The notes beneath the pieces are model-generated. The model saw only the letters and a list, made by a program, of their open reading frames with translations, did no database searches and had not been told where the DNA came from. The position numbers and the translations under genes are program-made. From Flavobacteriales bacterium (GTDB taxonomy: Bacteria; Bacteroidota; Bacteroidia; Flavobacteriales_F; PHOS-HE28), in assembly GCA_016787985.1 (NCBI GenBank), contig JAEUTC010000043.1:17145-81144 (forward strand): a stretch of DNA of 64,000 nt, given 5' to 3'. Shown piece after piece: positions 5,285-27,271 of the stretch (positions within the stretch are counted from its first letter, which is position 1; each line of letters starts with the position of its first letter).

Positions 5285-5977
5285 ATGCCCACGACGCCAT
5301 CGGTCATCATCCCGAAGTCGACCCTCAGCTTCCTCGACGACTTGGAGGCGCACAATGAAAAGCCCTGGTTCGAAGCGAACAAGCCCAGGTACCAGACCGC
5401 CCACGCGAACATGGTGGCCTTCGCCGAAGCGCTGTTGGAACGGATGCGGGTGCATGACAAGCTGAGCACCCCCAGCGGCGCGAAGAGCCTGATGCGCATT
5501 TACACGGATCAGCGTTTCCACAAGGACAAGCCGCCCTACGCGCCGCGTTTCGGAGGTCGCTTGGCACGGGTGAAGCCGGCCCTACGCGGGGGATACTTCT
5601 ACCGGATCCAGCCCGGTGATCGGTCGCACGTCACCTGCGGCTTCATGGGACCCGAACCGGAGGATCTTCGACTGATCCGGCAGGACATCGCCTACGACCA
5701 CGCCTCCTGGCGGAAGATCCTTCGTGGCAAGAACCTTCGCATCCACTTCGGAGAACTTTTCGGTGAGGAAGTGGCCACGGTCCCCCGTGGATATGCGAAG
5801 GACCACCCTGCTGCCGATCTCTTGCGGAAACGCCAATTCCTTCTTCGCCGCACGTTCACGGACAAAGAAGTCCTTTCGCCGGTATTCTTGGATGAAGTGG
5901 TGAAGACCTACCGCTCGGTACGTCCGTGGTTCGATCATATGACCGCTGTGCTGACCACCGACGGCAACGGAGCATAG
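5285..5977 (+). CDS. DUF2461 (TIGR02453) family protein
   Basis: ...FLDDLEAHNEKPWFEANKPRYQ... and ...GGYFYRIQPGDRSHVTCGFMGPEPEDLRLIRQDI... are characteristic of TIGR02453. Confidence 0.7.
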   Translation: MPTTPSVIIPKSTLSFLDDLEAHNEKPWFEANKPRYQTAHANMVAFAEALLERMRVHDKLSTPSGAKSLMRIYTDQRFHKDKPPYAPRFGGRLARVKPALRGGYFYRIQPGDRSHVTCGFMGPEPEDLRLIRQDIAYDHASWRKILRGKNLRIHFGELFGEEVATVPRGYAKDHPAADLLRKRQFLLRRTFTDKEVLSPVFLDEVVKTYRSVRPWFDHMTAVLTTDGNGA

Positions 5978-16020: not shown

Positions 16021-16080
16021 AGAAGCCTACCGAGGCCACATCGTGCGTTGGTCCCTTGGTATCCCGAGCGATGTGAACGA

Positions 16081-16827
16081 TCAGTGGAAGAACTGCATCA
16101 CCTTGCTCCAGAGCTTCCGGGTCACCAGCAACGGCGGGGCTTGTAGGCCGTTCAATCCCCAAGAGGCGCGCACTTCACGGTTGGCCTTCAGGATGTGTTT
16201 CACGCTACCGTTGCTCATGCCACCCAACCGGAAACGCACCAGCACCTCGCGCAAGTGGACCGTGCGGATCTCGTGTTTGTAGAGCATACGCAGGAGGATC
16301 TCGTAGTCCGCAGCGATACGCAGGTCGGTGTTGAAATGCCCGAAGCGGTCGTATGCGCTTTTCCGGATGAAAGTGCCCACATGCGGTGGCATCCAACCAC
16401 GGCGGAAGTTGTCGCGGTGGTAGGTCCCACTGAGCCACGTCCGGTGCACTTTGTGGATGTCATGCTCGTCCACCATGATGATGTCCCCGTAAACGGCATC
16501 GGCATGGCTCCGCTGGAACGCATCCACCACCTGGGCGATCACCTGGGGGGTCATCAGCAGGTCACCGGCGTTCACGAAACCGATCACCTCGCCGGTGGCC
16601 GCGCGCAGCCCCTTGTTCATGGCATCGTAGATCCCCTTGTCCGGCTCGCTCACATAGTGCGCCAGCCGGTCTCGGTGGCGCTCCACCACCTGTTGGGTGC
16701 CGTCGGTGCTGGCCCCGTCGATCACGATCACCTCGATGTCGGTGTGCGTTTGCGCGAACACGCTTTCCAACGAAGCGCCGATAACAGCGGCCGCGTTACG
16801 ACATACGGTGATGAGGGTGACTTTCAT
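16081..16827 (-). CDS. glycosyltransferase family 2 (WcaE-like)
   Basis: MKVTLITVCRNAA...VIVIDGASTDGT...DKGIYDAMNKG... is the GT2 DxD architecture. Confidence 0.85.
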   Translation of the reverse strand: MKVTLITVCRNAAAVIGASLESVFAQTHTDIEVIVIDGASTDGTQQVVERHRDRLAHYVSEPDKGIYDAMNKGLRAATGEVIGFVNAGDLLMTPQVIAQVVDAFQRSHADAVYGDIIMVDEHDIHKVHRTWLSGTYHRDNFRRGWMPPHVGTFIRKSAYDRFGHFNTDLRIAADYEILLRMLYKHEIRTVHLREVLVRFRLGGMSNGSVKHILKANREVRASWGLNGLQAPPLLVTRKLWSKVMQFFH

Positions 16828-16944
16828 GGATGCTTATCCAGCTCCTACCGTGCGAAGATGAGAAGTCTGCCGAGAAGCCTGAATGCGAACCTCCCACCCC
16901 AACCCGCGAACCAAGACCAACCTGGTGCTGTTCTGGACTACGCC

Positions 16945-17571
16945 ATGGAAAAGCTTCGGATCCTCCAATGTATTCTCTTGCTAGCGGTAACTTCCTCCTC
17001 GGCTCAAGACGTTGAGCATCCATTCCGTATGGGCAGCAACGTCGAGATCTCCGCCGCGCAGCTCCTGATCGCGGGAAGTAACCAATACGCGGACAACATC
17101 CTCGACCGCCAACGCGGCGACGCCACCTTTATCGGTGCCAGCTACCTGCTCGGCGACACCACCGACCAGGGCCGTGGCATCGGGCGTTTCGCCGTAGGGA
17201 TCGGCGCAGGAGCACTGCTATGGGAAGGTATCACCCTGATGCCTGTATTTGGTCAGGTCAACTGGCACCCCTTCGTCCGCCGAGCCCCATGGGCCAGCGT
17301 GCACCTCAGCCGCTTGGGCATCGCCATGCGCTTCGGCGGCATCCTCGGCGCGTGGAAACCCACCACCCGTGGCCAACTCGCCGGGCACACGTACACCGAC
17401 CTGGCCTTCAAGTACCCCGCCCACCTCGGTCGCTTCAACCTGAGCCTCGATGCAGGCCTCGGAATGATCCTTCTACGCGGTCCCTACACCATCGCTGAAG
17501 AAGGCTTGGTGGAGGACAGACGCTTCGCCGAGTTCATCTACCCACGGTTGGGTCTGAGCGTGGGTTTCTGA
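16945..17571 (+). CDS. putative outer-membrane beta-barrel protein
   Basis: Signal peptide MEKLRILQCILLLAVTSSSAQ, alternating amphipathic strands, C-terminal ...LGLSVGF with terminal Phe. The 5' part of the track ORF is antisense to GT2 and was discarded. Confidence 0.5.
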   Translation: MEKLRILQCILLLAVTSSSAQDVEHPFRMGSNVEISAAQLLIAGSNQYADNILDRQRGDATFIGASYLLGDTTDQGRGIGRFAVGIGAGALLWEGITLMPVFGQVNWHPFVRRAPWASVHLSRLGIAMRFGGILGAWKPTTRGQLAGHTYTDLAFKYPAHLGRFNLSLDAGLGMILLRGPYTIAEEGLVEDRRFAEFIYPRLGLSVGF

Positions 17572-17593
17572 GTCGATCACGTTGACCACCCGG

Positions 17594-17932
17594 TCAACGC
17601 GCACTGCGGGCCCTGGCGTTGTAGGACAGGCAAATGCGCATGTAATACTGAAAGTCGTGATCGCGCTGGAGACCTTCAGCGTGGATGTAGCAATAGCCCT
17701 TGTAGGTCTTGCCCTTCATCAGCATGGTGGCGTAGCCCGCGCGCTCAGCCAGCACTTCCTGCAAATCCGGGTCGAAGCGCAGCATCAGGCTATCACCGCG
17801 AACGCATACACAGGTCTTCCCATTGACCATGAAATTGAGCACCCCGAACATCACCTTTTCTTCTACGGAGATGCCAAGGGTGGCGGCCAGGTGCTCACGC
17901 ACCCGGTCCGCCAGCGCTACATCGTACGGCAT
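17594..17932 (-). CDS. TfoX/Sxy N-terminal domain protein
   Basis: MPYDVALADRVREHL...GVLNFMVNGKTCVCVRGDSLMLR... matches the TfoX_N domain. Start at internal ATG (rc at 17930-17932). The upstream part of the track ORF looks non-coding. Confidence 0.7.
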   Translation of the reverse strand: MPYDVALADRVREHLAATLGISVEEKVMFGVLNFMVNGKTCVCVRGDSLMLRFDPDLQEVLAERAGYATMLMKGKTYKGYCYIHAEGLQRDHDFQYYMRICLSYNARARSAR

Positions 17933-17936
17933 CGTT

Positions 17937-18311
17937 TCACCGGCGGGAATGGAGTCCCACGGTGTTCCCTTCCGTATCCTTGAAGATGGAGACGAAGCCG
18001 AACTCGCCGATGGCCATCTTCGGCCGCAGCACTTCGCCTCCTGCACGTACGATGCGCGCCTCCTCGGCCTCACAATCCGCTGTTTCGAAATACACCACCG
18101 TGGCGTTGGATCCGTGTCGCAGTTCAGATGTCTCCACCAAAGCCCCCGAGATGTTCCCACTAGTGGGGTCGAAGGGGAACAAGGCCTGCCTGCCCCATTG
18201 TGCGGGCATGTCCGTGAGTTCGATCTGGAATACGGTTGCATAGAACGCTTTGGCGCGCTCCAGGTCGGCGACGGGGATGTCGAACCAACCTACAGGGTTC
18301 TGGTTTTTCAT
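17937..18311 (-). CDS. VOC family protein (glyoxalase-like)
   Basis: MKNQNPVGWFDIPVADLERAKAFYATVF...VVYF...KDTEGNTVGLH, a VOC fold. 4-nt gap to the downstream TfoX gene. Confidence 0.7.
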   Translation of the reverse strand: MKNQNPVGWFDIPVADLERAKAFYATVFQIELTDMPAQWGRQALFPFDPTSGNISGALVETSELRHGSNATVVYFETADCEAEEARIVRAGGEVLRPKMAIGEFGFVSIFKDTEGNTVGLHSRR

Positions 18312-18440
18312 GTGATGGATCTTCGGTATCGCACCTTGGGTGCCGGGTGCAAAAGTGGATCCACACGGATCGGCGGAATTGTAAAAATGGGACAGTGATC
18401 GGCTGTGATCGATGCGCCTGTTCACGCGCACGGATCAGGC

Positions 18441-19295
18441 TCAAGGCCGATGCACCACGGTGTGCTGGGACATGCGGGCATACTCCATTCCATCGAAGAT
18501 CAACGACATCCGCAAGGCATCGCCGCGAGAGCCCCCCGGGGTCAGGCCCGTGAACGCCTTGAAATCCTTGATGAAGTGTGCCTGGTCGAAAAAGGAGCTC
18601 TCGTAAGCGAGGCCCGTCAGGTCGTTCACCTCATCGAAGAGCATGCGGCGCAGGGCGGACTGGATGCGTACGGTACGCGAATACTGTTTCGGCGATAGGC
18701 CGATGAGCGTGGAGAACTTACGGGCCAGGTGGCGGCGATGCACATGGCTGCGCCGTGACAGTTCATCCACGGTGAGGCTCCCGTTCGTCGTGCGGATGTC
18801 CAAGAGAGTGCGCGCGATCACCGCATCAGCCTGTGGCCGCGTGGCCAAGCGATGGAACAAGAAGCCCTCCACCAGGTCGATCCGTTCTGCGGTGGTGCAC
18901 GCATCCAGGACCCGGCGCCCGATCACATCCCCCTCGAAACCGAACAACCCCTGCAGGGGCACCGCCGTGTTCTCGAACGCCTTCAACGGACCGCCCCAGA
19001 ACGGCTGGAAACCGCCGGGGTGGAAGCGCACCACGAACGACCCCGTGCGCCCCAGCGGACGCACCACGAACGGCTTCGTCAATTGACCGATCAGGAAGCA
19101 GCGCGGCAGATCCACCCACACGCCGGGCCGGGGCTGGTGCAGGTAGGGATCGCCGTAGTGGAAGATCAGCTTCATGGTGCCATCGGGCACGATGGTGTTC
19201 ATCACCGGCGTGTCGTGCGGTTCGCCCACGAGGTTCCAATGGCACATCACGTGCGCATCCAACCCGCGGGAAACTGGGAAGATCTCTGAACGCAT
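18441..19295 (-). CDS. AraC family transcriptional regulator
   Basis: C-terminal dual HTH: ...LTVDELSRRSHVHRRHLARKFSTLIGLSPKQYSRTVRIQSALRRM... Confidence 0.8.
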   Translation of the reverse strand: MRSEIFPVSRGLDAHVMCHWNLVGEPHDTPVMNTIVPDGTMKLIFHYGDPYLHQPRPGVWVDLPRCFLIGQLTKPFVVRPLGRTGSFVVRFHPGGFQPFWGGPLKAFENTAVPLQGLFGFEGDVIGRRVLDACTTAERIDLVEGFLFHRLATRPQADAVIARTLLDIRTTNGSLTVDELSRRSHVHRRHLARKFSTLIGLSPKQYSRTVRIQSALRRMLFDEVNDLTGLAYESSFFDQAHFIKDFKAFTGLTPGGSRGDALRMSLIFDGMEYARMSQHTVVHRP

Positions 19296-19468
19296 GATAC
19301 TCCGTTGGGACCTCCGGTATTCAGGGGGCTAACTATCCGCCACACCGACTTCGGGCAACGCCACGGCAAAACTACATGCCAACGAAGGCTGGCCCTACAA
19401 GCGATGATGCCATGAAGTCCAGCGGCACGAACCAGCTGAGCGACCAAAGGCTGACACAGCGATCCCAA

Positions 19469-20101
19469 CTAGAAGTTGAATCCCACATGCAAACCCGGTT
19501 CGCCGAGGATGAACTTGGACCACTTGTCGTCCAGCTGCTTGAAGCCATCCGGTAACCGTGTGTGGTAGGCCCGGTGCGTGATGGCGATGGACGGTTGGAA
19601 GAAGAAACGGTCCTTGAAGAGCTTGATGTGATAGCCGGCCCGGTAGGTGTTGAAGACCTGGAACCCGCCATCGATCTTGTTCCCTTGGTCGTTCACGAAG
19701 TCCTGCAAGGTGGGCATCACGTTCAGCTCGGCATAGAGGCCCTTCCAAAAGAAGCGTTGATAGGAAAGCGAAAGGCCATACTCGCGCACATACCCTGGGA
19801 ATTTCTCTTCCGGCTTTTCGTAGGCATTGTTGAGGAACGGATGTATACCATTGGGCCAGGCATACTTCCAGGTCTTGGGTTCCACGGTGATCACATCCCG
19901 ACCCGTGAGGCGATAGCCGATGTTGAGTTGAAAGAAATCCGGTGGATTGTCGGTGGGCGCCAGGTTACCCACCAGCACGAAAAGGCTGGTTCCCACGAAC
20001 CAGCGCTTGTAGGTGCTGTCCGTTCTCGAGTATTGTGCTTGGAGGTTGAACGAGCTGGTCATCACCAGCGCAAGAATCACGAGTCCGATGTTCTTCTTCA
20101 T
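19469..20101 (-). CDS. outer-membrane protein, paralog A of a duplicated family (DUF, ends GFNF)
   Basis: Signal peptide MKKNIGLVILALVMTSSFNLQAQ. Shares ...YKRWFVG.SL..LGNL......P.F.QLN.GYRLT..DVI..E.K...YAWP.GI... and a C-terminal ...GLHVGFNF with the next gene. Confidence 0.6.
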   Translation of the reverse strand: MKKNIGLVILALVMTSSFNLQAQYSRTDSTYKRWFVGTSLFVLVGNLAPTDNPPDFFQLNIGYRLTGRDVITVEPKTWKYAWPNGIHPFLNNAYEKPEEKFPGYVREYGLSLSYQRFFWKGLYAELNVMPTLQDFVNDQGNKIDGGFQVFNTYRAGYHIKLFKDRFFFQPSIAITHRAYHTRLPDGFKQLDDKWSKFILGEPGLHVGFNF

Positions 20102-20161
20102 CACTTCTTCTGTTGTTTTCAACGACGGCGCAAAACAAGACCGGCGATGGGCCTCCACTCG

Positions 20162-20175
20162 TTCACTTTGGTGAA
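20162..20175. promoter_or_regulatory. inverted repeat TTCAC-TTTG-GTGAA ~61 nt upstream of OMP paralog A; candidate Crp/Fnr-family operator
   Basis: Perfect 5-bp arms. The same flanking context (CGTTCACTT..GTGAAGGAATGC) recurs upstream of paralog B. Confidence 0.4.
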
Positions 20176-20317
20176 GGAATGCGCCACACGAACGCCTTTT
20201 TCCGGATGCTCCCGAGCCATGCAGGCATCGCCAGCACGCTCGTGCTACGCAGGACCGCATGGAAAATGAACCGACCCGTTGGTCGAGGATGACAGCCTGT
20301 CTGCCGCCCCTGGTCCT

Positions 20318-20935
20318 CTAGAAATTGAACCCGAAGTGAAGGCCTGGCTGGATGAAGTAGTTGGGCCATCTACTTTCCACGGCCTTGAACACTTCAGGAA
20401 CCTTCGTCCGTACCGGCCAATAGCTACAGCCCATGGCTGGCTCGAAGAAGAACCGGTTCTCCCAGAACCTGAACTGATAACCCAGGTGGAAGTTCAGGTA
20501 CAAGGTGTACCCATTGCCGATCTTCTTTTTGTCCTGATCCATGTATTTCTCGAAGGCGTTCAAGGCATAGATGGAAGTATAGACCCCTTTCCACCAGAAG
20601 CGCTGGTAGCCCACGGTTGGCGCCAGTATGCGCGCATGGCCGGGGTAGTTCAGGCCGGGTGCATCGAATGAGGGACCGAATGGAATACCGATCGGCCACG
20701 CGTAGATGGATCGTTTGAACTCGATCGAGATCACATCCTTCGGGGTTAGCCGATAGCCCACGTTCAACTGGACGTACTCAGGTTTGTTGACCCGATCCAG
20801 ATTCCCGAGCAAGTACAGTGAACTCCCAACGTACCACCGCCGATAGGTGCTGTCCTGCAGGGCAGTTGCAGCGCGGAGTTGGAGCGTGCTGGCCATCAAG
20901 ATCACAAAACCAATGAGAGTGCTTTTCTTCTGCAT
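20318..20935 (-). CDS. outer-membrane protein, paralog B of the duplicated family
   Basis: Signal peptide MQKKSTLIGFVILMASTLQLRA. Collinear similarity to paralog A. C-terminal ...GLHFGFNF. Confidence 0.6.
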   Translation of the reverse strand: MQKKSTLIGFVILMASTLQLRAATALQDSTYRRWYVGSSLYLLGNLDRVNKPEYVQLNVGYRLTPKDVISIEFKRSIYAWPIGIPFGPSFDAPGLNYPGHARILAPTVGYQRFWWKGVYTSIYALNAFEKYMDQDKKKIGNGYTLYLNFHLGYQFRFWENRFFFEPAMGCSYWPVRTKVPEVFKAVESRWPNYFIQPGLHFGFNF

Positions 20936-20992
20936 GCTACCCTACGTGTTGATCGAGGCCGCAAAAGAAGACCGGCGGGTCGCCCCACCGCG

Positions 20993-21006
20993 TTCACTTA
21001 AGTGAA
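20993..21006. promoter_or_regulatory. perfect 14-bp palindrome TTCACTTAAGTGAA ~58 nt upstream of OMP paralog B; candidate Crp/Fnr-family operator
   Basis: Perfect palindrome between the Crp/Fnr gene 3' end and the paralog B start. Confidence 0.4.
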
Positions 21007-21013
21007 GGAATGC

Positions 21014-21595
21014 TCAGCCCCTCTCCTTCTCGATGATCCGTGCCCTGAGCCGGCTCAACGATTGGGGGGTGATGCCCAGGAAGCTCGCCAGCTGGTGCTG
21101 TGGCACACGCTGAACGAGGTCCGGACGTGTGCGCAATAGGTTCAAGTACCGCTGTTCGGGTGATGAGGTCTTGAACGCATCGAACTCCACGCGCTCCTTC
21201 GCCAGTAGCTCTTCGGAAAGCACCTTACACAGCGTCTCGAAGCGCGGGAAACGGCTATTCATGTCCACCTCCAGGTCCGCGTCCGAAACGGTCAGGATGG
21301 TGTCTTCCACACAACTGATGGAATACTCGGAGGGCGTTCGGCTCACCACGCACGGTGGTGTCAAGGCCTCCAGCTCGCTATAGAAGGAGGTGGTCCGCTC
21401 CTCGCCATCCACGATGTAGTAGGTGCGGATGCAGCCTTCCAATACGAAGTAGCTGTTCCGCGATCGTTCTCCGGCGTTGAGCAGTATGGTCCCTTTCTTC
21501 ACCGTTCGGAAGATGTCCAAGGAACCGACCACGCTCTTCTCCTCCTCCGTCAAGGTCATGTACTTGGCGATGAAGGCGAAGAGTTTGTTCTGCAT
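21014..21595 (-). CDS. Crp/Fnr family transcriptional regulator
   Basis: cNMP-binding-like N-domain (...GTILLNAGERSRNSYFVLEGCIRTYY...) and C-terminal HTH (...LQRVPQHQLASFLGITPQSLSRLR...). Confidence 0.85.
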   Translation of the reverse strand: MQNKLFAFIAKYMTLTEEEKSVVGSLDIFRTVKKGTILLNAGERSRNSYFVLEGCIRTYYIVDGEERTTSFYSELEALTPPCVVSRTPSEYSISCVEDTILTVSDADLEVDMNSRFPRFETLCKVLSEELLAKERVEFDAFKTSSPEQRYLNLLRTRPDLVQRVPQHQLASFLGITPQSLSRLRARIIEKERG

Positions 21596-21769
21596 GGATC
21601 ACCGGTCCAGTCTTCGACGGTCATGCGCTACACCCCGCTGATCTTCTTGCGCCACAACCGAACAGACAGCAAAGGTACCGACTCAACACGAGGCGTGCTA
21701 AACGTGGGCTACGGACCTAAGGACCGCAAATCCTGGAACACCTGGCCCCAGGAGAAGGCCGGCACCCGA

Positions 21770-23149
21770 TCACTCCTTCAACTTCACACGCACCTTCTCG
21801 CCATCAGCAGTGATCCGGACCAACGCGTAGTTGCTCACGTTCGCGGGAGAGCCCCAATGCCTCACATCCATCGTCGGCGTAGCGGTGCCCGAACCATCGG
21901 GGTACACGGTAACCGTGTAGCCCCCTGTGGGGGTTTGGGTGGTGTGGGTGTACTTGGTCGCCACGAATTGCACGATCACATGGTATTCACCGGGCTTCAG
22001 GTGCTGGAACGAGAAGCCTCCCCGGTCATCGGTGACCTCGGTGAGCAGGGTCTGTTCCTTCACTTCCAACGGCAGCGGGAAACCTGCGCAGCCGTTGAGC
22101 ACCTGGCCAGCCACGATGGTCGGGGGGAATTTGGTGCGGACGGCGGTGTTGAAGGCCAGCCACTCCTTGAAGTACGGCGTTTGGGGAATGAGCATCACGA
22201 TGCTGCCCTTGGGCGCAAGGATCCTCTTGGGCCGATCCAGCAAGGCCCCGGGCATGCCTTCGTCCGTGGTGTACGCCTGGCCTTCGATGCTGGAATTGCC
22301 CGCGCTGATCATCGCCCGGGCCGCGGCCGCATCGAACGGGGTCACGATGGGGTTGCGGTCGGCTTGCGTATCCATGTAGGTCACGCCGAAGGAGCCGGGG
22401 TCCTTGCTCACGAACAGGATCCTCCGCGACTCCTTCTCGATCACGATCTTGTACGTGTTCGTCGCGGTCAACGTATTACGGAGTTCCACCACGAAGACGT
22501 CCACCACCTCGCCGATGGCACACGACGGCATCTTCATCTCCTGCAAGCTCTCGATCTCCCAGCGCATCACCTTCGTGCGGTAGCCGTCATCGAAGGTCAC
22601 CTGCGGGATCAGGGCCCGGTAGCCCGCCTTCAGGGGCAATAGGCTGACCAGGAACTCCAACGAACTCCCCAGGAAGAACGGCTCTTCGAGGGGTTCATCG
22701 AAATGCTCCTTCTCCCCTGTCCTGTACACCTCGATATCGCCCTTCAATGTCTTGCCGCAGACCAGGTCGTACGAGAAGCCCACCGTCTCGGCCTGCGCAC
22801 GGATGGGCCCGAAGGTGCGGGCGTCCAACACGAGTTTCCGTTTCACCACATCCGCACCCTGCTCCGTATACCGCTCTTCGATCACGATCTCGCCCGCCGT
22901 GCGGCTGATGGTCACGAACCGTTGATCCGGCTTCTGGGGTTCTCCGGAAGCGAATAGACCGCCGGTCGGTCGTTCCCACACGAAACTGCCGGTGTGCAAC
23001 AGCGCCGTGTTGAGGCTGGCACTACCGGGCAGCACGATATCGGGCTTTTGCGCCACCACACGGGTGGGAGCCATGAGCAGTACCGCCATTGCGGTCGAGA
23101 GGGCGAAGGAGACGCGGAACACCATTCCAGCTGATAGCATGTTGATCAT
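21770..23149 (-). CDS. hypothetical secreted protein with C-terminal carboxypeptidase-regulatory-like domain
   Basis: Signal peptide. C-terminal ...DDRGGFSFQHLKPGEYHV... resembles a CarbopepD_reg-like beta-sandwich. Confidence 0.5.
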   Translation of the reverse strand: MINMLSAGMVFRVSFALSTAMAVLLMAPTRVVAQKPDIVLPGSASLNTALLHTGSFVWERPTGGLFASGEPQKPDQRFVTISRTAGEIVIEERYTEQGADVVKRKLVLDARTFGPIRAQAETVGFSYDLVCGKTLKGDIEVYRTGEKEHFDEPLEEPFFLGSSLEFLVSLLPLKAGYRALIPQVTFDDGYRTKVMRWEIESLQEMKMPSCAIGEVVDVFVVELRNTLTATNTYKIVIEKESRRILFVSKDPGSFGVTYMDTQADRNPIVTPFDAAAARAMISAGNSSIEGQAYTTDEGMPGALLDRPKRILAPKGSIVMLIPQTPYFKEWLAFNTAVRTKFPPTIVAGQVLNGCAGFPLPLEVKEQTLLTEVTDDRGGFSFQHLKPGEYHVIVQFVATKYTHTTQTPTGGYTVTVYPDGSGTATPTMDVRHWGSPANVSNYALVRITADGEKVRVKLKE

Positions 23150-23548
23150 CGTTCATCGATCCAACGGCACACCACCACGGATAAAGGCGGAAACGCCCCT
23201 AAAAGAACCGTGATACGCGTGGGATCATCGCGGCAAGCGGGAGAAGCGCATCAAGACCGGGAGAGGTCGATCCTTCTTCACCTGAACACCTTTGCCGAGC
23301 GGTGCCAAAAGTATGCCAGTGATCCTATCGCCTTTGGGGAACAGGGCTTCCGCGTTGAACCGCCGGTCACAAAGCCGGGACGCGTTCGGCATAGCATGCC
23401 CCGCCGTTGGCGCACAGTACCTGAGTTGAGCGAAGCTGTTCAGCGCCACTCGAAAAGCGTGACAGGATGTTCGAAGAAACCTACTAACCAAAGAAAGACT
23501 GCTCAGACCTTGAAGCTGTTCTAGGACGTGTCACTCGGGCAATCCTAC

Positions 23549-23938
23549 TCATTCTAATCGTGACTTCCATGCACAAGCCCTAGCCCCCGATCTTAAAACG
23601 CGCATTGGCGATGAGCCGTAGATGAGCAGCGGCACCAATACGACTATGCTTAGGATGGTACATTTAGCCAGCTTTTCGCCTGTGCTGTAGGTGGCGCCTT
23701 TGGTCCACAGTAGAACTACGGATGCCAGCCAGAACACCCCGGCACTGCCGCCGGCAGCGAGCAGGTGACCCAAGCCATCCAGGTAGTCATGTGCCAGGGC
23801 TAGTGAAAGACCGAAAGCAAGGAGCGTTCCGCCGAGAAAGGAAGCCACAATGCCCACGAGCACCCCATTGCTCATGGTGGACCGGTGGAGCCACCGGAGA
23901 CAAAGAACCAGCACGGCAACGTTCAGGAGAACGGACAT
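23549..23938 (-). CDS. small integral membrane protein, hypothetical
   Basis: 3-4 predicted TM helices. No homology recognised. Confidence 0.4.
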   Translation of the reverse strand: MSVLLNVAVLVLCLRWLHRSTMSNGVLVGIVASFLGGTLLAFGLSLALAHDYLDGLGHLLAAGGSAGVFWLASVVLLWTKGATYSTGEKLAKCTILSIVVLVPLLIYGSSPMRVLRSGARACAWKSRLE

Positions 23939-24023
23939 CCGCGTTGTTCAAGGTTGGTTCAGCAAGCTCTTCGTAGCCGCTTCGATGAAGCGGGTCTAGT
24001 TCGTTCGCAGCCGTGGTTCGCGG

Positions 24024-24218
24024 TCAGCCCTCCGTCTTCTCCTCCTTCTTCCCCCGCAGGATCAAGAACAGCGAGAGCCCAAAGCCGAACATATAGACCA
24101 AGGCGAGGGGCAGGTGCCGGAAGCGGAGGGTCTCGAAGTCGAACTCCCTGAAGAGGGAGATGCCGATGATGAGGGTGATGACCTGCATCGGGAAGGACGC
24201 GGCGAGGAGCTTCTTCAT
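24024..24218 (-). CDS. small (64 aa) two-TM membrane protein, hypothetical
   Basis: MKKLL start and two hydrophobic helices. Immediately downstream of direct-repeat copy 1. Confidence 0.35.
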   Translation of the reverse strand: MKKLLAASFPMQVITLIIGISLFREFDFETLRFRHLPLALVYMFGFGLSLFLILRGKKEEKTEG

Positions 24219-24242
24219 GGTGGTGAGACTTAAGCGGTGGGG

Positions 24243-24282
24243 TCCATCACCCGTTCGCGCACGGGCTGGGCGAGGTTGTCTT
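24243..24282. repeat. direct repeat copy 1 (~40 bp) matching the 3' end of the WcaF-like CDS
   Basis: tccatcacccgTtcgcgcacgggctgggcgAggttgTctt. The counterpart at 24820-24859 has 3 mismatches. Confidence 0.6.
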
Positions 24283-24758
24283 CAATTATCGTCGGTACAA
24301 CTTCGGCACCGCTTCATGCTGATGATCTCTCCGTTCCTGAACTCAGCCCTGAAGCCGATGCTTCTCTTCCAAAGCAGTCGTTCGTATGTCTTCGCCGCTA
24401 CAAGAACGAAGTCGTATTTGGTGGTGTCAAGTGGAAAATCAATGACTTGGAACTCCACAATGCCAACAGACCCTTTCAAAAATGCCCAACGCTCATAAGC
24501 CCTGGTGCTTTGCGCGATGAATTCGTCAAACTGAGGAATGTAGCGCGCATAGTCCTGCACGAATGCATTTAAACGGTCAAGTTGTGCCTGGTCAACGTTC
24601 TTCTTCGGCGCCCTGAAATAGACGTCACAAGAGATCGTTTGATGAGGGAATGGCCAAGTGAAATGATAGTTCTCCCTACCAGACCAACTTCGAACGAATG
24701 AGAGGTCATTCCTAACCTGCTCAAGGTTCATAAGTGGAGGTGAGAATTGCTCCATCAC
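24282..24758 (-). CDS. hypothetical protein (158 aa) carried on a low-GC inserted cassette
   Basis: The ORF fills the lower-GC segment between the two direct repeats. No recognisable domain. Confidence 0.5.
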   Translation of the reverse strand: MMEQFSPPLMNLEQVRNDLSFVRSWSGRENYHFTWPFPHQTISCDVYFRAPKKNVDQAQLDRLNAFVQDYARYIPQFDEFIAQSTRAYERWAFLKGSVGIVEFQVIDFPLDTTKYDFVLVAAKTYERLLWKRSIGFRAEFRNGEIISMKRCRSCTDDN

Positions 24759-24815
24759 AGTTCGCTAGATGGGACTAAAGTCTGGTTACCTAGTTGGAGG
24801 GTCAATACTCGTTGG

Positions 24816-25391
24816 TCATTCCATCACCCGCTCGCGCACGGGCTGGGCGGGGTTGCCTTGGTAGATGGTGTAGGGCTCCAGGTCCTTGGTGGCCACGCTT
24901 CCGGCGGCCAACACACTGTGGCTCTTGAGGGTGACGCCCAGGGTGACGATGGCCCCCGCTCCCACCCAGCTGCCATCTTCCAACACCACCGGCTTGGTGT
25001 AGGTGGGGTAATCCACCTTCTTGTAATCGTGGCTACCCTGGATGATCATGGCGCCCTGGCTGATCACCACGTTGTTGCCGATGGTGAGGGTATCGAGGTT
25101 ATCCAACCAGGCACGCTGACCGATCCAGCTGTGGTGGCCGATGCTGAGCTTCCACGGGAACTTGATGTTCACGCTGGGGTGGATGACCACACCTTGCCCC
25201 ACGTGCGCGCCGAACAGCCGCAGCAGACCGGGTTTCGGCGAGCGGAACGGGAAGGCCGGGTTCTGGAAGATGAGGGCGTTGACGAAGAACCACAAGGTGC
25301 GTTTGAACACACCGGCGCCGGGGTGGAAGGTCTTCGAGTTATCGAAGCGGCTGAGGTCTACCTGGGGGCGTGCGGTCATGGTTTTGGCCAT
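24816..25391 (-). CDS. wcaF: WcaF-like hexapeptide-repeat acetyltransferase (colanic acid/EPS acetyltransferase family)
   Basis: ...RLFGAHVGQGVVIHPSVNIKFPWKLSIGHHSWIGQRAWLDNLDTLTIGNNVVISQGAMI... left-handed beta-helix hexapeptide repeats typical of WcaF. Confidence 0.8.
   Translation of the reverse strand: MAKTMTARPQVDLSRFDNSKTFHPGAGVFKRTLWFFVNALIFQNPAFPFRSPKPGLLRLFGAHVGQGVVIHPSVNIKFPWKLSIGHHSWIGQRAWLDNLDTLTIGNNVVISQGAMIIQGSHDYKKVDYPTYTKPVVLEDGSWVGAGAIVTLGVTLKSHSVLAAGSVATKDLEPYTIYQGNPAQPVRERVME
24820..24859. repeat. direct repeat copy 2, the last ~13 codons of the WcaF-like gene
   Basis: tccatcacccgCtcgcgcacgggctgggcgGggttgCctt, encoding ...NPAQPVRERVME-stop on the minus strand. Confidence 0.6.
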
Positions 25392-25639
25392 CCTTCCAAG
25401 AGTATCACATTCACATCACCATCCAAGACCCTGAAGTCCTTATCGGCCGTTAGCAGTGGCACATCCTTGCGCAACGCCGTTGCTGCGATGATGGCGTCAA
25501 CGACCGCCATGTTGTGCTTCCTTCGAATGCCGATGGCCAGGTCTGGCAACCCTGGTCCATATTCAAGGGAACTAGTGCCGACCACGACGCATAGCTTTCT
25601 GTTGTACCACGGGATCACCTTCAAAAGGGATCGTCCCAA
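25376..25639 (-). pseudogene. PIN-domain (VapC-like) toxin gene remnant, C-terminal half only
   Basis: ...NMAVVDAIIAATALRKDVPLLTADKDFRVLDGDVNVILLEGW matches a VapC C-terminus. The N-terminal PIN half is absent in this frame. A 57-aa ORF in another frame starts MIVL.. upstream. Confidence 0.4.
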
Positions 25640-26128
25640 CGAAGCGCGAGACGCTGGCCCCCTTGCGCTGTTTCCGGGCCAACCGCTTCAATGCAGCGGT
25701 AAGTTGGCCCTTCAGCAGTTCTCCTTCGCGCAGTACTATCATGATCGTGATCGGTAGTCTTCAAAGATACCGGTTCCTTGACATCCAAGCCAGCAAGGAG
25801 GGCCTCACCGCGTTGCGTCGGATGCGCGGTATCACACAAGGACTGGACCTGCGCCTTGCCACAACAGGCTGCGGAACTGTGTGTCGGGATCTGCAACACA
25901 CTGTTGTTAGCCACTACCAGAAGAAAGAGCGCGAAGCGCCAGGCAAAGCTCGCCATGCGAGCGATTCCTCTGCGTTCTCTGCGCCTCTGCGTGAGGAAGC
26001 GAGGGACGCTCTCAAGCCCAACCCATCCATGCCCAAGAACTTGCATCGCTTTTGCCGGTCGAAAGGCACTGCGCGGCCCTCTCACACTTCCTTTGCCGCA
26101 AAGCGCGCACGTTATCGCCAACGAACAG

Positions 26129-27271
26129 TCATGGCGCGAACATCCGGAAACTGCGCTCCACCGGAGCGGGATCGTTCAAATATCTGGTTCCCATGGCGTA
26201 GGCACCACGGGCCAGTGCATCGTAGGCGGCTTGGTCCATGTCCACGGCGGTCTGTAAGGCACGCTCGAAAGCGGTCTCGTCGGTGAGGGGCAGGTCCCAG
26301 CCGGCTTGTTGCGCTGCGAGGTCCTTCCACGGTGTGCGGTCGCTGATGAGCAGGGGCCTACCGGCGGTAAGGGCCTCCAGCATGGTATGCCCGAAATTCT
26401 CACCCACGCTGGGCATGTAGAGGAAGTGGGCATCGGCGAGGGCTACGGCCACTTGATCGTTGGGCAACTGGCCACGCCACTCCACCACCACGCTGCTGGG
26501 TAACTGGGCGATGGCCTGCTGGCATTCGGCCCAATAGTCCTGATCGTAGATGGTGCCGTACAATTCGTAGCGGATGCGACCCTTCAAGCGCGTGAGGCGT
26601 TCGATGGCGAAAAGCGTATTCTTCTCTTCCGCGATGCGCGCGAGGCTGATGAGGCGGAGTTCGCCGGCGCATTTCTGCACGGGCAGCGGTTCCTGTTCCG
26701 GCGTTTTGCGCGCGAGGTTCTGCACCAGGTGGATGCGGGTGGCCTTGCCGATCCAGCGTTGGATATCGGCCACCTCTTCGGCGTTGGTGGCCTGGAATTC
26801 CACGCCCTTGAAACAGCCGAGCACCTTCATGCCGAAGAGGAAGAGGCGTTTCTTCAGGCGGCTTTGCTGCATAGGTCCGGCGGCGAGCATGCCACGCACG
26901 GCCACGATGCGCCGCGTGTCGCTGCCGCGCAATAGCCACAGCGGCACGATGGTGGACCATACCGAGAACAACCCGTTGATGTAGACCACATCCCACTGTT
27001 CCTGGTGGATGAGCCGTTGCCACACCTGGCGTGTGCGTTGCGCGGGCGAGGCGTGGTAGACCTGTTCGCCAGCGTCGGCGGTGGTCCACTGGTCGGTGGG
27101 CACCTGCGCTTCGTTGGTGGTGGCGGTGTAGTCGCGGTCGCCGGTGACGATGTGGAAGTGAACGCGGGTGCCGAGGTGCTCCACGAGGTTCACCATGCTG
27201 CGCACGGGACCACCGGCCTTGAAGTACGGTTTGTACCAATCGATGAAGGCGAGTACCCGTGGTGTGCTCAC
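26129..27271 (-). CDS. glycosyltransferase family 4
   Basis: C-terminal ...MPSVGENFGHTMLEALTAGRPLLISDRTPW... is the GT4 EX7E region. Confidence 0.85.
   Translation of the reverse strand: MSTPRVLAFIDWYKPYFKAGGPVRSMVNLVEHLGTRVHFHIVTGDRDYTATTNEAQVPTDQWTTADAGEQVYHASPAQRTRQVWQRLIHQEQWDVVYINGLFSVWSTIVPLWLLRGSDTRRIVAVRGMLAAGPMQQSRLKKRLFLFGMKVLGCFKGVEFQATNAEEVADIQRWIGKATRIHLVQNLARKTPEQEPLPVQKCAGELRLISLARIAEEKNTLFAIERLTRLKGRIRYELYGTIYDQDYWAECQQAIAQLPSSVVVEWRGQLPNDQVAVALADAHFLYMPSVGENFGHTMLEALTAGRPLLISDRTPWKDLAAQQAGWDLPLTDETAFERALQTAVDMDQAAYDALARGAYAMGTRYLNDPAPVERSFRMFAP

Follow-up and report, generated by a model that had tools for sequence, protein, structure and literature searches.

Among the transcription factors of the Crp/Fnr superfamily, FNR/FixK and the Escherichia coli CRP provide the best described points of comparison. 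FNR recognises the box TTGAT-N4-ATCAA, which is centred near -41.5 in FNR/FixK-type class II promoters, and class II activation is an established mode of the E. coli CRP as well. Bacteroidota encode many short Crp/Fnr-like regulators, the ligands, operators and targets of which are to our knowledge largely unassigned. We analysed a 64-kb stretch of the genome of a Flavobacteriales bacterium (contig JAEUTC010000043.1; the whole stretch is called the window in the following), which carries on its minus strand a gene for a short regulator of this kind (crp) followed by two paralogous genes for predicted outer-membrane proteins (omp1 and omp2), each of the two preceded by a near-palindromic box, likewise on the minus strand. 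We consider it probable that this three-gene unit crp-omp1-omp2 is a compact sensor-operator-target cassette, widespread in Bacteroidota and acting as a conventional local circuit.

A conserved box precedes both omp genes

An earlier note on this DNA had described the motif TTCAC-N4-GTGAA upstream of both paralogs, one copy forming a perfect 14-bp palindrome, and both statements hold: the motif occurs exactly twice in the 64 kb, with one copy before either paralog (expectation 0.09; two copies were reached by none of 100 shuffled sequences), and the copy upstream of omp1 is the perfect palindrome TTCACTTAAGTGAA. Allowing one mismatch yields five matches in the window compared to 1.8 expected, the three extra matches being unremarkable. 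A weight matrix built from orthologous sites and then scanned across the window scores the box of omp1 (box 1) with 33.6 bits and the box of omp2 (box 2) with 22.5 bits, while no other position of the window exceeds -4.9. Box 1 begins 2 nt past the crp stop codon. The distances of 58 and 61 nt, counted from the last base of the palindrome to the A of the ATG, had been given correctly, but they differ by 3 nt and are not equal as had been stated. The upstream regions of omp1 and omp2 share two conserved blocks, i.e. the box and a T-rich element at identical spacing (T at +37), as well as a short relic of the crp 3'-end, in agreement with a duplication that extends upstream of the genes.

A scan of one genome per species retrieved 80 loci, taken with 10-kb flanks and comprising 755 kb in total, 76 of them informative for gene order. 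With up to two mismatches allowed, these loci contain 126 boxes located 48-62 nt before an omp start codon, 50 of them upstream of omp2 genes, and only 10 boxes elsewhere in the 755 kb, several of which stand in front of degraded copies of omp or, in a promoter context, of other genes. The sequence logo of the 126 sites reveals the conserved element to be a nearly invariant 21-mer, ATTTCTTAACTTAAGTGAACG. In its 14-bp core, 115 sites have A at position 2 and 11 have C. The core is thus most often TTAACTTAAGTGAA, an imperfect palindrome with the left arm TTAAC, the dyad symmetry of the candidate site having one mismatch in most genomes, and the window carries the rarer, perfect version. A scan of metagenome contigs for TTMACTTAAGTGAACG that disregarded genes yielded 139 strand-occurrences. 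A -7 box (see below) is present at the fixed spacing in 102 of them, 91 of these upstream of a gene of the omp1/omp2 family, and the 37 lacking a -7 box are found in unrelated contexts. On the metagenome contigs the box is nearly confined to promoters of this kind.

The 11 remaining promoter-type occurrences have other targets (Table 1), and in eight of them a Crp-like gene ends at the box. Beside non-OMP targets there is usually a Crp paralog whose recognition helix is the same. An FAD_binding_3 monooxygenase together with a Crp paralog is also present at locus L089, where the -7 box has two mismatches, placing it outside these 11; at L184 a similar small lipoprotein follows a box without a -7 match, and at L076 box and -7 box precede a CPBP-like membrane protease (our own reading of the sequence) divergent from crp.

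Promoter geometry

In most of the 126 sites the T of TAnnTTTG is located at offset +37 from the box start, the box centre lying 30.5 bp upstream of this T. TAnnTTTG is the sigma-A -7 box, which spans -12 to -5 in Flavobacterium psychrophilum (PMC9723704) and was described as conserved in Flavobacterium and Bacteroides (PMC7641319). Spacing and position of the -7 box together place the box centre near -42.5. From box to -7 element the 126 promoters have no TTTG conserved at -33. With the transcription start being predicted, this geometry would be that of a class II Crp/Fnr-activated promoter.

The hairpin after omp1 and the separate -7 box of each omp gene suggest that omp1 and omp2 are separate transcription units. 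The hairpin filling the spacer between box 1 and its -7 box may be the crp terminator, its T-run doubling as the -7 element. A conserved spacer hairpin was considered and rejected: in one register 634 Watson-Crick cells are observed compared to 578 expected from column composition, and the hairpin of the window is in another register. The spacer is self-complementary across genomes (CGAG...CTCG), mostly as a matter of composition, with weak covariation. Downstream of the -7 box and ahead of the start codon, the genome loci contain a block ATC(A/G)TTTAAC at +49 to +58 from the box, which holds the half-site-like word TTAAC and lies around the predicted transcription start and leader; it is partly kept in the window as CTCGATCAAC and GTCGTTGAAA (20948-20957 and 20117-20126, minus strand).

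The regulator and its recognition helix

The N-terminal domain of the crp product matches the Pfam family PF00027 (cNMP_binding) with 33.1 bits (cut-off 27.5), in line with the earlier assignment of a Crp/Fnr gene directly upstream of omp1 on the same strand, and the cyclic nucleotide monophosphate (cNMP)-binding domain is also annotated on identical genes elsewhere. The closest solved relative is PDB entry 3DN7, aligned over residues 3-188 (E-value 5e-22), with FNR structures giving weaker matches of about 1e-3; both alignments span the C-terminal helix region, residues 160-188. The putative C-terminal helix-turn-helix (HTH) contains the recognition helix ...LGITPQSLSRLRARI. The NCBIfam scan of the protein gave no match to a CRP equivalog. 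Cysteines, counted in the translation, are present only at positions 55, 82, 95 and 123, and the translation contains no N-terminal Cys cluster (CX2CX5C plus a fourth Cys) for an Fe-S centre, so that an oxygen sensor of the FNR type can be excluded. On inspection by eye, the phosphate-binding cassette seems degenerate (SELEAL...SRTPS compared to GELAL...RSA), which makes cAMP binding doubtful. By these sequence features the regulator is placed within the Crp/Fnr superfamily as neither FNR proper nor CRP proper.

Monooxygenase-linked Crp paralogs are about 30% identical overall to the protein of the window, yet they keep the helix LGITPQSLSRIR and the same box. Crp paralogs found within 5 kb of the cassette (L009, L019, L050, L074) have other helices, such as ITQSSLSRIR and VTPEFLSTIR, and the sequences after their stop codons differ, some being palindromic (e.g. 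TTTGCCAAATGGCAAA and ACCTTAAGGT). This suggests a general layout of regulator, own operator and target in Bacteroidota. Among orthologs, a right arm GTCAA is found only with a PESLSR helix instead of PQSLSR (2/2 compared to 0/65; Fisher p = 0.0028, a value ignoring phylogeny), the two pairs originating from a Chitinophagales metagenome-assembled genome (MAG) and a Flavobacterium, i.e. from two unrelated lineages. The metagenome scan, the distant paralogs, the neighbouring paralogs as controls and this covariation together tie the specificity of the box to the recognition helix of the adjacent protein.

About 70 nt before the crp ATG there is an exact -7 box match, TACCTTTG (window 21620-21700, minus strand), and no Crp box, so that the regulator is probably not autoregulated here. 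Autoregulation via a box upstream of crp was rejected as a general feature: such a box is absent in the window, and a single divergent case (L076) is found among the 80 loci.

Conservation and age of the cassette

An ortholog of crp, mostly 62-74% identical, adjoins omp1 upstream in 73 of the 76 informative loci, at a median of 86 nt before omp1, and an omp2-like gene follows omp1 on the same strand in 57. Identity of this second gene to omp2 of the window splits the loci into two classes, 34 with at least 68% and 23 with 50-67%. In a few genomes crp-omp1 and crp-omp2 exist as separate pairs (L015, L027, L035). We found 1334 database relatives for omp1 and 1852 for omp2; the best 120 listed relatives per paralog are 70-97% identical, have no Pfam domain and are named, if at all, only as hypothetical protein. 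Named sources of relatives include Chitinophagaceae, Saprospiraceae, Dyadobacter, Pedobacter, Hymenobacter, Emticicia and Marivirga. The barrel family is compact, with 392 clusters at 50% identity (E-value of at most 0.001) among 1.84 billion representatives, many of them fragments.

The tandem duplication proposed earlier is real as far as paralogy is concerned, but it is not recent: both paralogs have orthologs of their own at 56-80% identity (56-90% for omp2), and the orthologs of each paralog span orders. The separate identity classes and the crp-omp1 and crp-omp2 pairs of some genomes likewise indicate an ancient duplication. The sequence immediately before the omp2 box has, in many genomes, kept a resemblance to the end of crp (...ARILEKKS and stop), identity being raised to about 25 nt from the box, and these relics are much clearer in L013, L018 and L020 than in the window. 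We conclude from them that the ancestral duplicated unit held crp, box, promoter and omp, the second crp having been lost later. In Dyadobacter sp. CY345 (L049, 5820-6447) the omp2 copy is frameshifted, and in an Agriterribacter MAG (L009, around 5633-5760) omp2 is reduced to box, promoter and a stub of an open reading frame (ORF); with 19 of the 76 loci lacking omp2, the second paralog is dispensable in some lineages.

Both promoters of one genome often carry the same rare box variant, e.g. TTAACTAAAGTCAAGG twice in L018, and the promoter regions of omp1 and omp2 can be near-identical for more than 45 nt upstream (L018, L047, L013, L020). This suggests gene conversion or concerted evolution between the two promoters.

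The omp products

The earlier description of two collinear minus-strand paralogs with signal peptides and a common GFNF ending proved accurate. The products of omp1 and omp2 are 38% identical (E-value 5e-55) and collinear along their length, both carry a Sec-type signal peptide that lacks a lipobox Cys, and their C-termini read G(L)H(F/V)GFNF. Products of 193, 205 and 210 aa for the three genes were also called by gene callers on two independent assemblies, and an ORF extending to 20260 is for this reason not the true omp2 start.

The structure prediction that had been suggested as a check yielded an AlphaFold2 model of the omp1 product (predicted local distance difference test score 80.7, predicted template-modelling (TM) score 0.72) with a helix at residues 2-22, corresponding to the signal, followed by eight strands, and with long loops at residues 40-54, 79-98 and 178-192. 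In a Foldseek search against the PDB all leading matches are outer-membrane barrels, OprF-N, Ail, OmpA-TM, NspA and OmpX being closest, at E-values of about 1e-3 to 1e-2 and TM-scores of 0.4-0.6. With the Sec signal, the eight modelled strands and the C-terminal ...GFNF, outer-membrane barrel seems a fair description of the omp1 product. Scans of both paralogs against Pfam and NCBIfam gave no match at an E-value of 0.01 or below, and a profile of 40 family members found no PDB sequence at an E-value of 10 or below. The loops contain the invariant motifs W80-P81-x-G83-I84-P85-F86, P98-G99 and R102, and orthologs are 75-80% identical across orders, which is unusual for surface-exposed barrels. 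The strong conservation hints at a specific activity or partner of the barrels.

Genomic neighbourhood

The closest genome, a Flavobacteriales MAG (L001) with 89-95% nucleotide identity, is syntenic with the window around the cassette (compared over 16079-27106), and the immediate flanks are replaced (window 16870-19470 and 21600-24030). The region around the cassette is rich in glycosyltransferase and acetyltransferase genes, suggesting a variable polysaccharide locus. A conserved wider neighbourhood was rejected, as other genomes show no linkage of the neighbouring genes for DUF3108, AraC/DUF6597 and glyoxalase proteins (and TfoX_N) with the cassette.

Table 1. Features of the cassette and its surroundings in the window, and other targets found behind the box on metagenome contigs (L numbers)
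Feature	Position or locus	Strand	Remark
crp, Crp/Fnr-family one-component regulator	21014-21595	-	193 aa
omp1, predicted 8-stranded outer-membrane beta-barrel, secreted	20318-20935	-	205 aa
omp2, paralog of omp1	19469-20101	-	210 aa
Box 1, proposed operator, ATTCCTTCACTTAAGTGAACG	20991-21011	-	palindrome at 20993-21006
Box 2, proposed second operator, ATTCCTTCACCAAAGTGAACG	20160-20180	-	TTCAC/GTGAA arms at 20162-20175
-7 box of omp1, TTCTTTTG	20962-20969	-	one mismatch to TAnnTTTG; predicted start near 20957
-7 box of omp2, TTGTTTTG	20131-20138	-	+37 from box 2; predicted start near 20126
GC-rich hairpin, 7 pairs, then T-run	20973-20990	-	terminator-like hit and RNA fold; fills spacer between box 1 and -7 box
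Terminator-like hairpin and T-run after omp1	20271-20286	-	terminator-like hit
Weak crp 3'-end relic, AGCATCCGGAAAAAGG compared to ATCATCGAGAAGGAGA	20195-20210	-	upstream of box 2
AraC-family regulator, N-terminal DUF6597	18441-19295	-	next gene downstream of omp2; then a glyoxalase-fold gene and a TfoX_N gene
Other target: FAD_binding_3 monooxygenases	L092, L123, L143		
Other target: Flavodoxin_2 NAD(P)H oxidoreductases	L161, L173		
Other target: DUF6326 membrane proteins	L098, L119		
Other target: small lipoprotein	L131 (also L065)		
Other target: DUF2807 protein	L194		

Discussion

The idea of a local regulon, in which the Crp/Fnr protein controls the duplicated omp genes, had been put forward in the earlier note and is supported by the conserved gene order and box, the promoter context in metagenomes and a box that tracks the recognition helix. 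We propose a model in which the 193-aa protein senses a small-molecule ligand via its cNMP-binding-like domain and recognises, as a dimer, the near-palindromic box TT(A/C)ACTTAAGTGAA, one copy lying just past the crp stop codon before omp1 and a second before omp2. With the box centre some 30.5 bp before a sigma-A -7 box, near -42.5 and without a conserved -33 element, the bound regulator would most likely recruit RNA polymerase in a class II-type manner, switching on omp1 and omp2 separately, the products of which would be two anciently diverged 8-stranded barrels with unusually conserved loops. In this model we infer binding by the crp product, the dimer stoichiometry and activation rather than repression. 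A wider reading, which we regard as quite unlikely, sees a phylum-wide modular system of many Crp-like sensors with divergent ligand domains, each placed before its own operator and a single target. With several sensor lineages of only about 30% overall identity keeping one recognition helix and operator word, different signals could then converge or cross-talk at the same promoters, and omp1/omp2 would form a signal-induced outer-membrane device with conserved surface loops, for instance an enzyme, a channel for small molecules or a receptor, in place of a structural barrel.

Several points weigh against the model of a local activator. The position near -42.5 depends on TAnnTTTG being the -7 box, and the copies in the window, TTCTTTTG and TTGTTTTG, each have one mismatch to it. 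The HTH_Crp_2 match of the regulator reaches 17.5 bits, under the cut-off of 27. The covariation of helix and box comes from two loci only, and the matching box variants within L018 and within L047 could reflect gene conversion between the two promoters and not co-evolution with the protein. Moreover, a site at -49 to -36 equally suits a repressor, -33 elements of Bacteroidota being weak. The same regulator and boxes might then act in the opposite sense, the protein occupying -49 to -36 and blocking RNA polymerase until the ligand releases it, and local one-component regulators beside their targets are often repressors. The box abuts the place where a -33 element would be, and, as a matter of general knowledge, Bacteroidota promoters can depend mainly on the -7 box without strictly needing an activator (for the emphasis on the -7 box see PMC9723704 and PMC7641319). 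On the other hand, a centre near -42.5 in constant helical phase with the -7 box is what class II activators of the Crp/Fnr family classically show, repressors tend to have their operators across the -7 box or the start site, and the lack of a conserved -33 TTTG in the 126 promoters suggests intrinsically weak promoters. Repression is thus the unlikely alternative of the two, and it leaves the identity of regulator and operator unchanged.

That the box is bound by a factor encoded elsewhere, or is a structural or mobile repeat, with the adjacency of crp reflecting inherited gene order, we consider very unlikely. In its favour, box 2 lies beside omp2 without an intact regulator gene next to omp2, and gene order may be maintained by vertical descent or because the cassette is transferred whole, the homology to L001 starting within 2 nt of the crp ATG and stopping within 2 nt of the omp2 stop. 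However, the same box stands beside distant Crp paralogs that have unrelated targets and the same helix, other helices go along with other sequences, a helix substitution tracks a box substitution, the position relative to the -7 box is fixed, and the 5-4-5 dyad fits a Crp/Fnr dimer. Extremely improbable is a function of the palindrome as an RNA hairpin in the 3' untranslated region of crp or in the omp leader, be it as terminator, attenuator or processing site. The arms in the window can pair to a 5-bp stem with a TTAA loop, and the second, GC-rich terminator-like hairpin directly follows box 1, but TTAAC/GTGAA in 115 of the 126 sites creates an A-G mismatch in the stem without a compensating change, and the folds are no more stable than those of shuffled sequences (z = +0.8 and -1.1). 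Furthermore, loop and flanks vary as little as the stem, a pattern typical of contacts with protein; no crp transcript exists upstream of box 2; the box is located upstream of the putative -7 box; and Rfam gave no match. On the uncompensated mismatch, the shuffle-like folds, the position and the Rfam result we rejected a role at the RNA level.

The locus offers a testable pairing of one of the many short Crp/Fnr-like regulators of Bacteroidota with a defined operator, ATTTCTTAACTTAAGTGAACG, and two defined target promoters. In the literature we searched, including the 2013 survey of the CRP/FNR superfamily, we found no description of the motif or the system, i.e. of the operator word, of the layout of stop codon, box, promoter and target, or of the targets. 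The correspondence between helix and box (Q/E compared to G/C at box position 11) is a possible seed of a recognition code for the subfamily, and the barrel family, with about 400 clusters at 50% identity, outside Pfam and unusually conserved, is a reasonable target for functional work. The current picture of how such regulators work stays unchanged.

Compared to known systems, the locus resembles FNR/FixK class II promoters by the 5-4-5 dyad with its 14-bp core, by the box centre about 41-43 bp upstream of the predicted start and by a regulator of the Crp/Fnr superfamily with a putative C-terminal HTH. It differs from them by the half-sites TTAAC or TTCAC and GTGAA (box TT(A/C)AC-TTAA-GTGAA), by a regulator without the N-terminal Cys cluster, by a Bacteroidota sigma-A promoter with the -7 box TAnnTTTG in place of -10/-35 elements, and by a regulon that looks local, not global. 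With the E. coli CRP (TGTGA-N6-TCACA) the system shares the cNMP-binding fold combined with a putative HTH, and the GTGAA arm resembles the TGTGA half-site, whereas the spacer has 4 nt instead of 6 and the protein of 193 aa is not a global regulator. PDB entry 3DN7, a structural-genomics entry named cyclic nucleotide binding regulatory protein for which we know of no published function, has the same architecture of 190 aa; its recognition helix TPEYLSEIR differs from TPQSLSRLR found here, so that a different operator is to be expected. The omp products resemble the OmpA N-terminal domain, OmpX, Ail, NspA and OprF-N in having a signal peptide, eight predicted antiparallel strands and a C-terminal aromatic residue. 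In contrast to these small barrels, they show no detectable sequence relation to families of Pfam, NCBIfam or the PDB, and their long loops, e.g. WPxGIPF...PG, are strongly conserved where those of the small barrels are usually variable.

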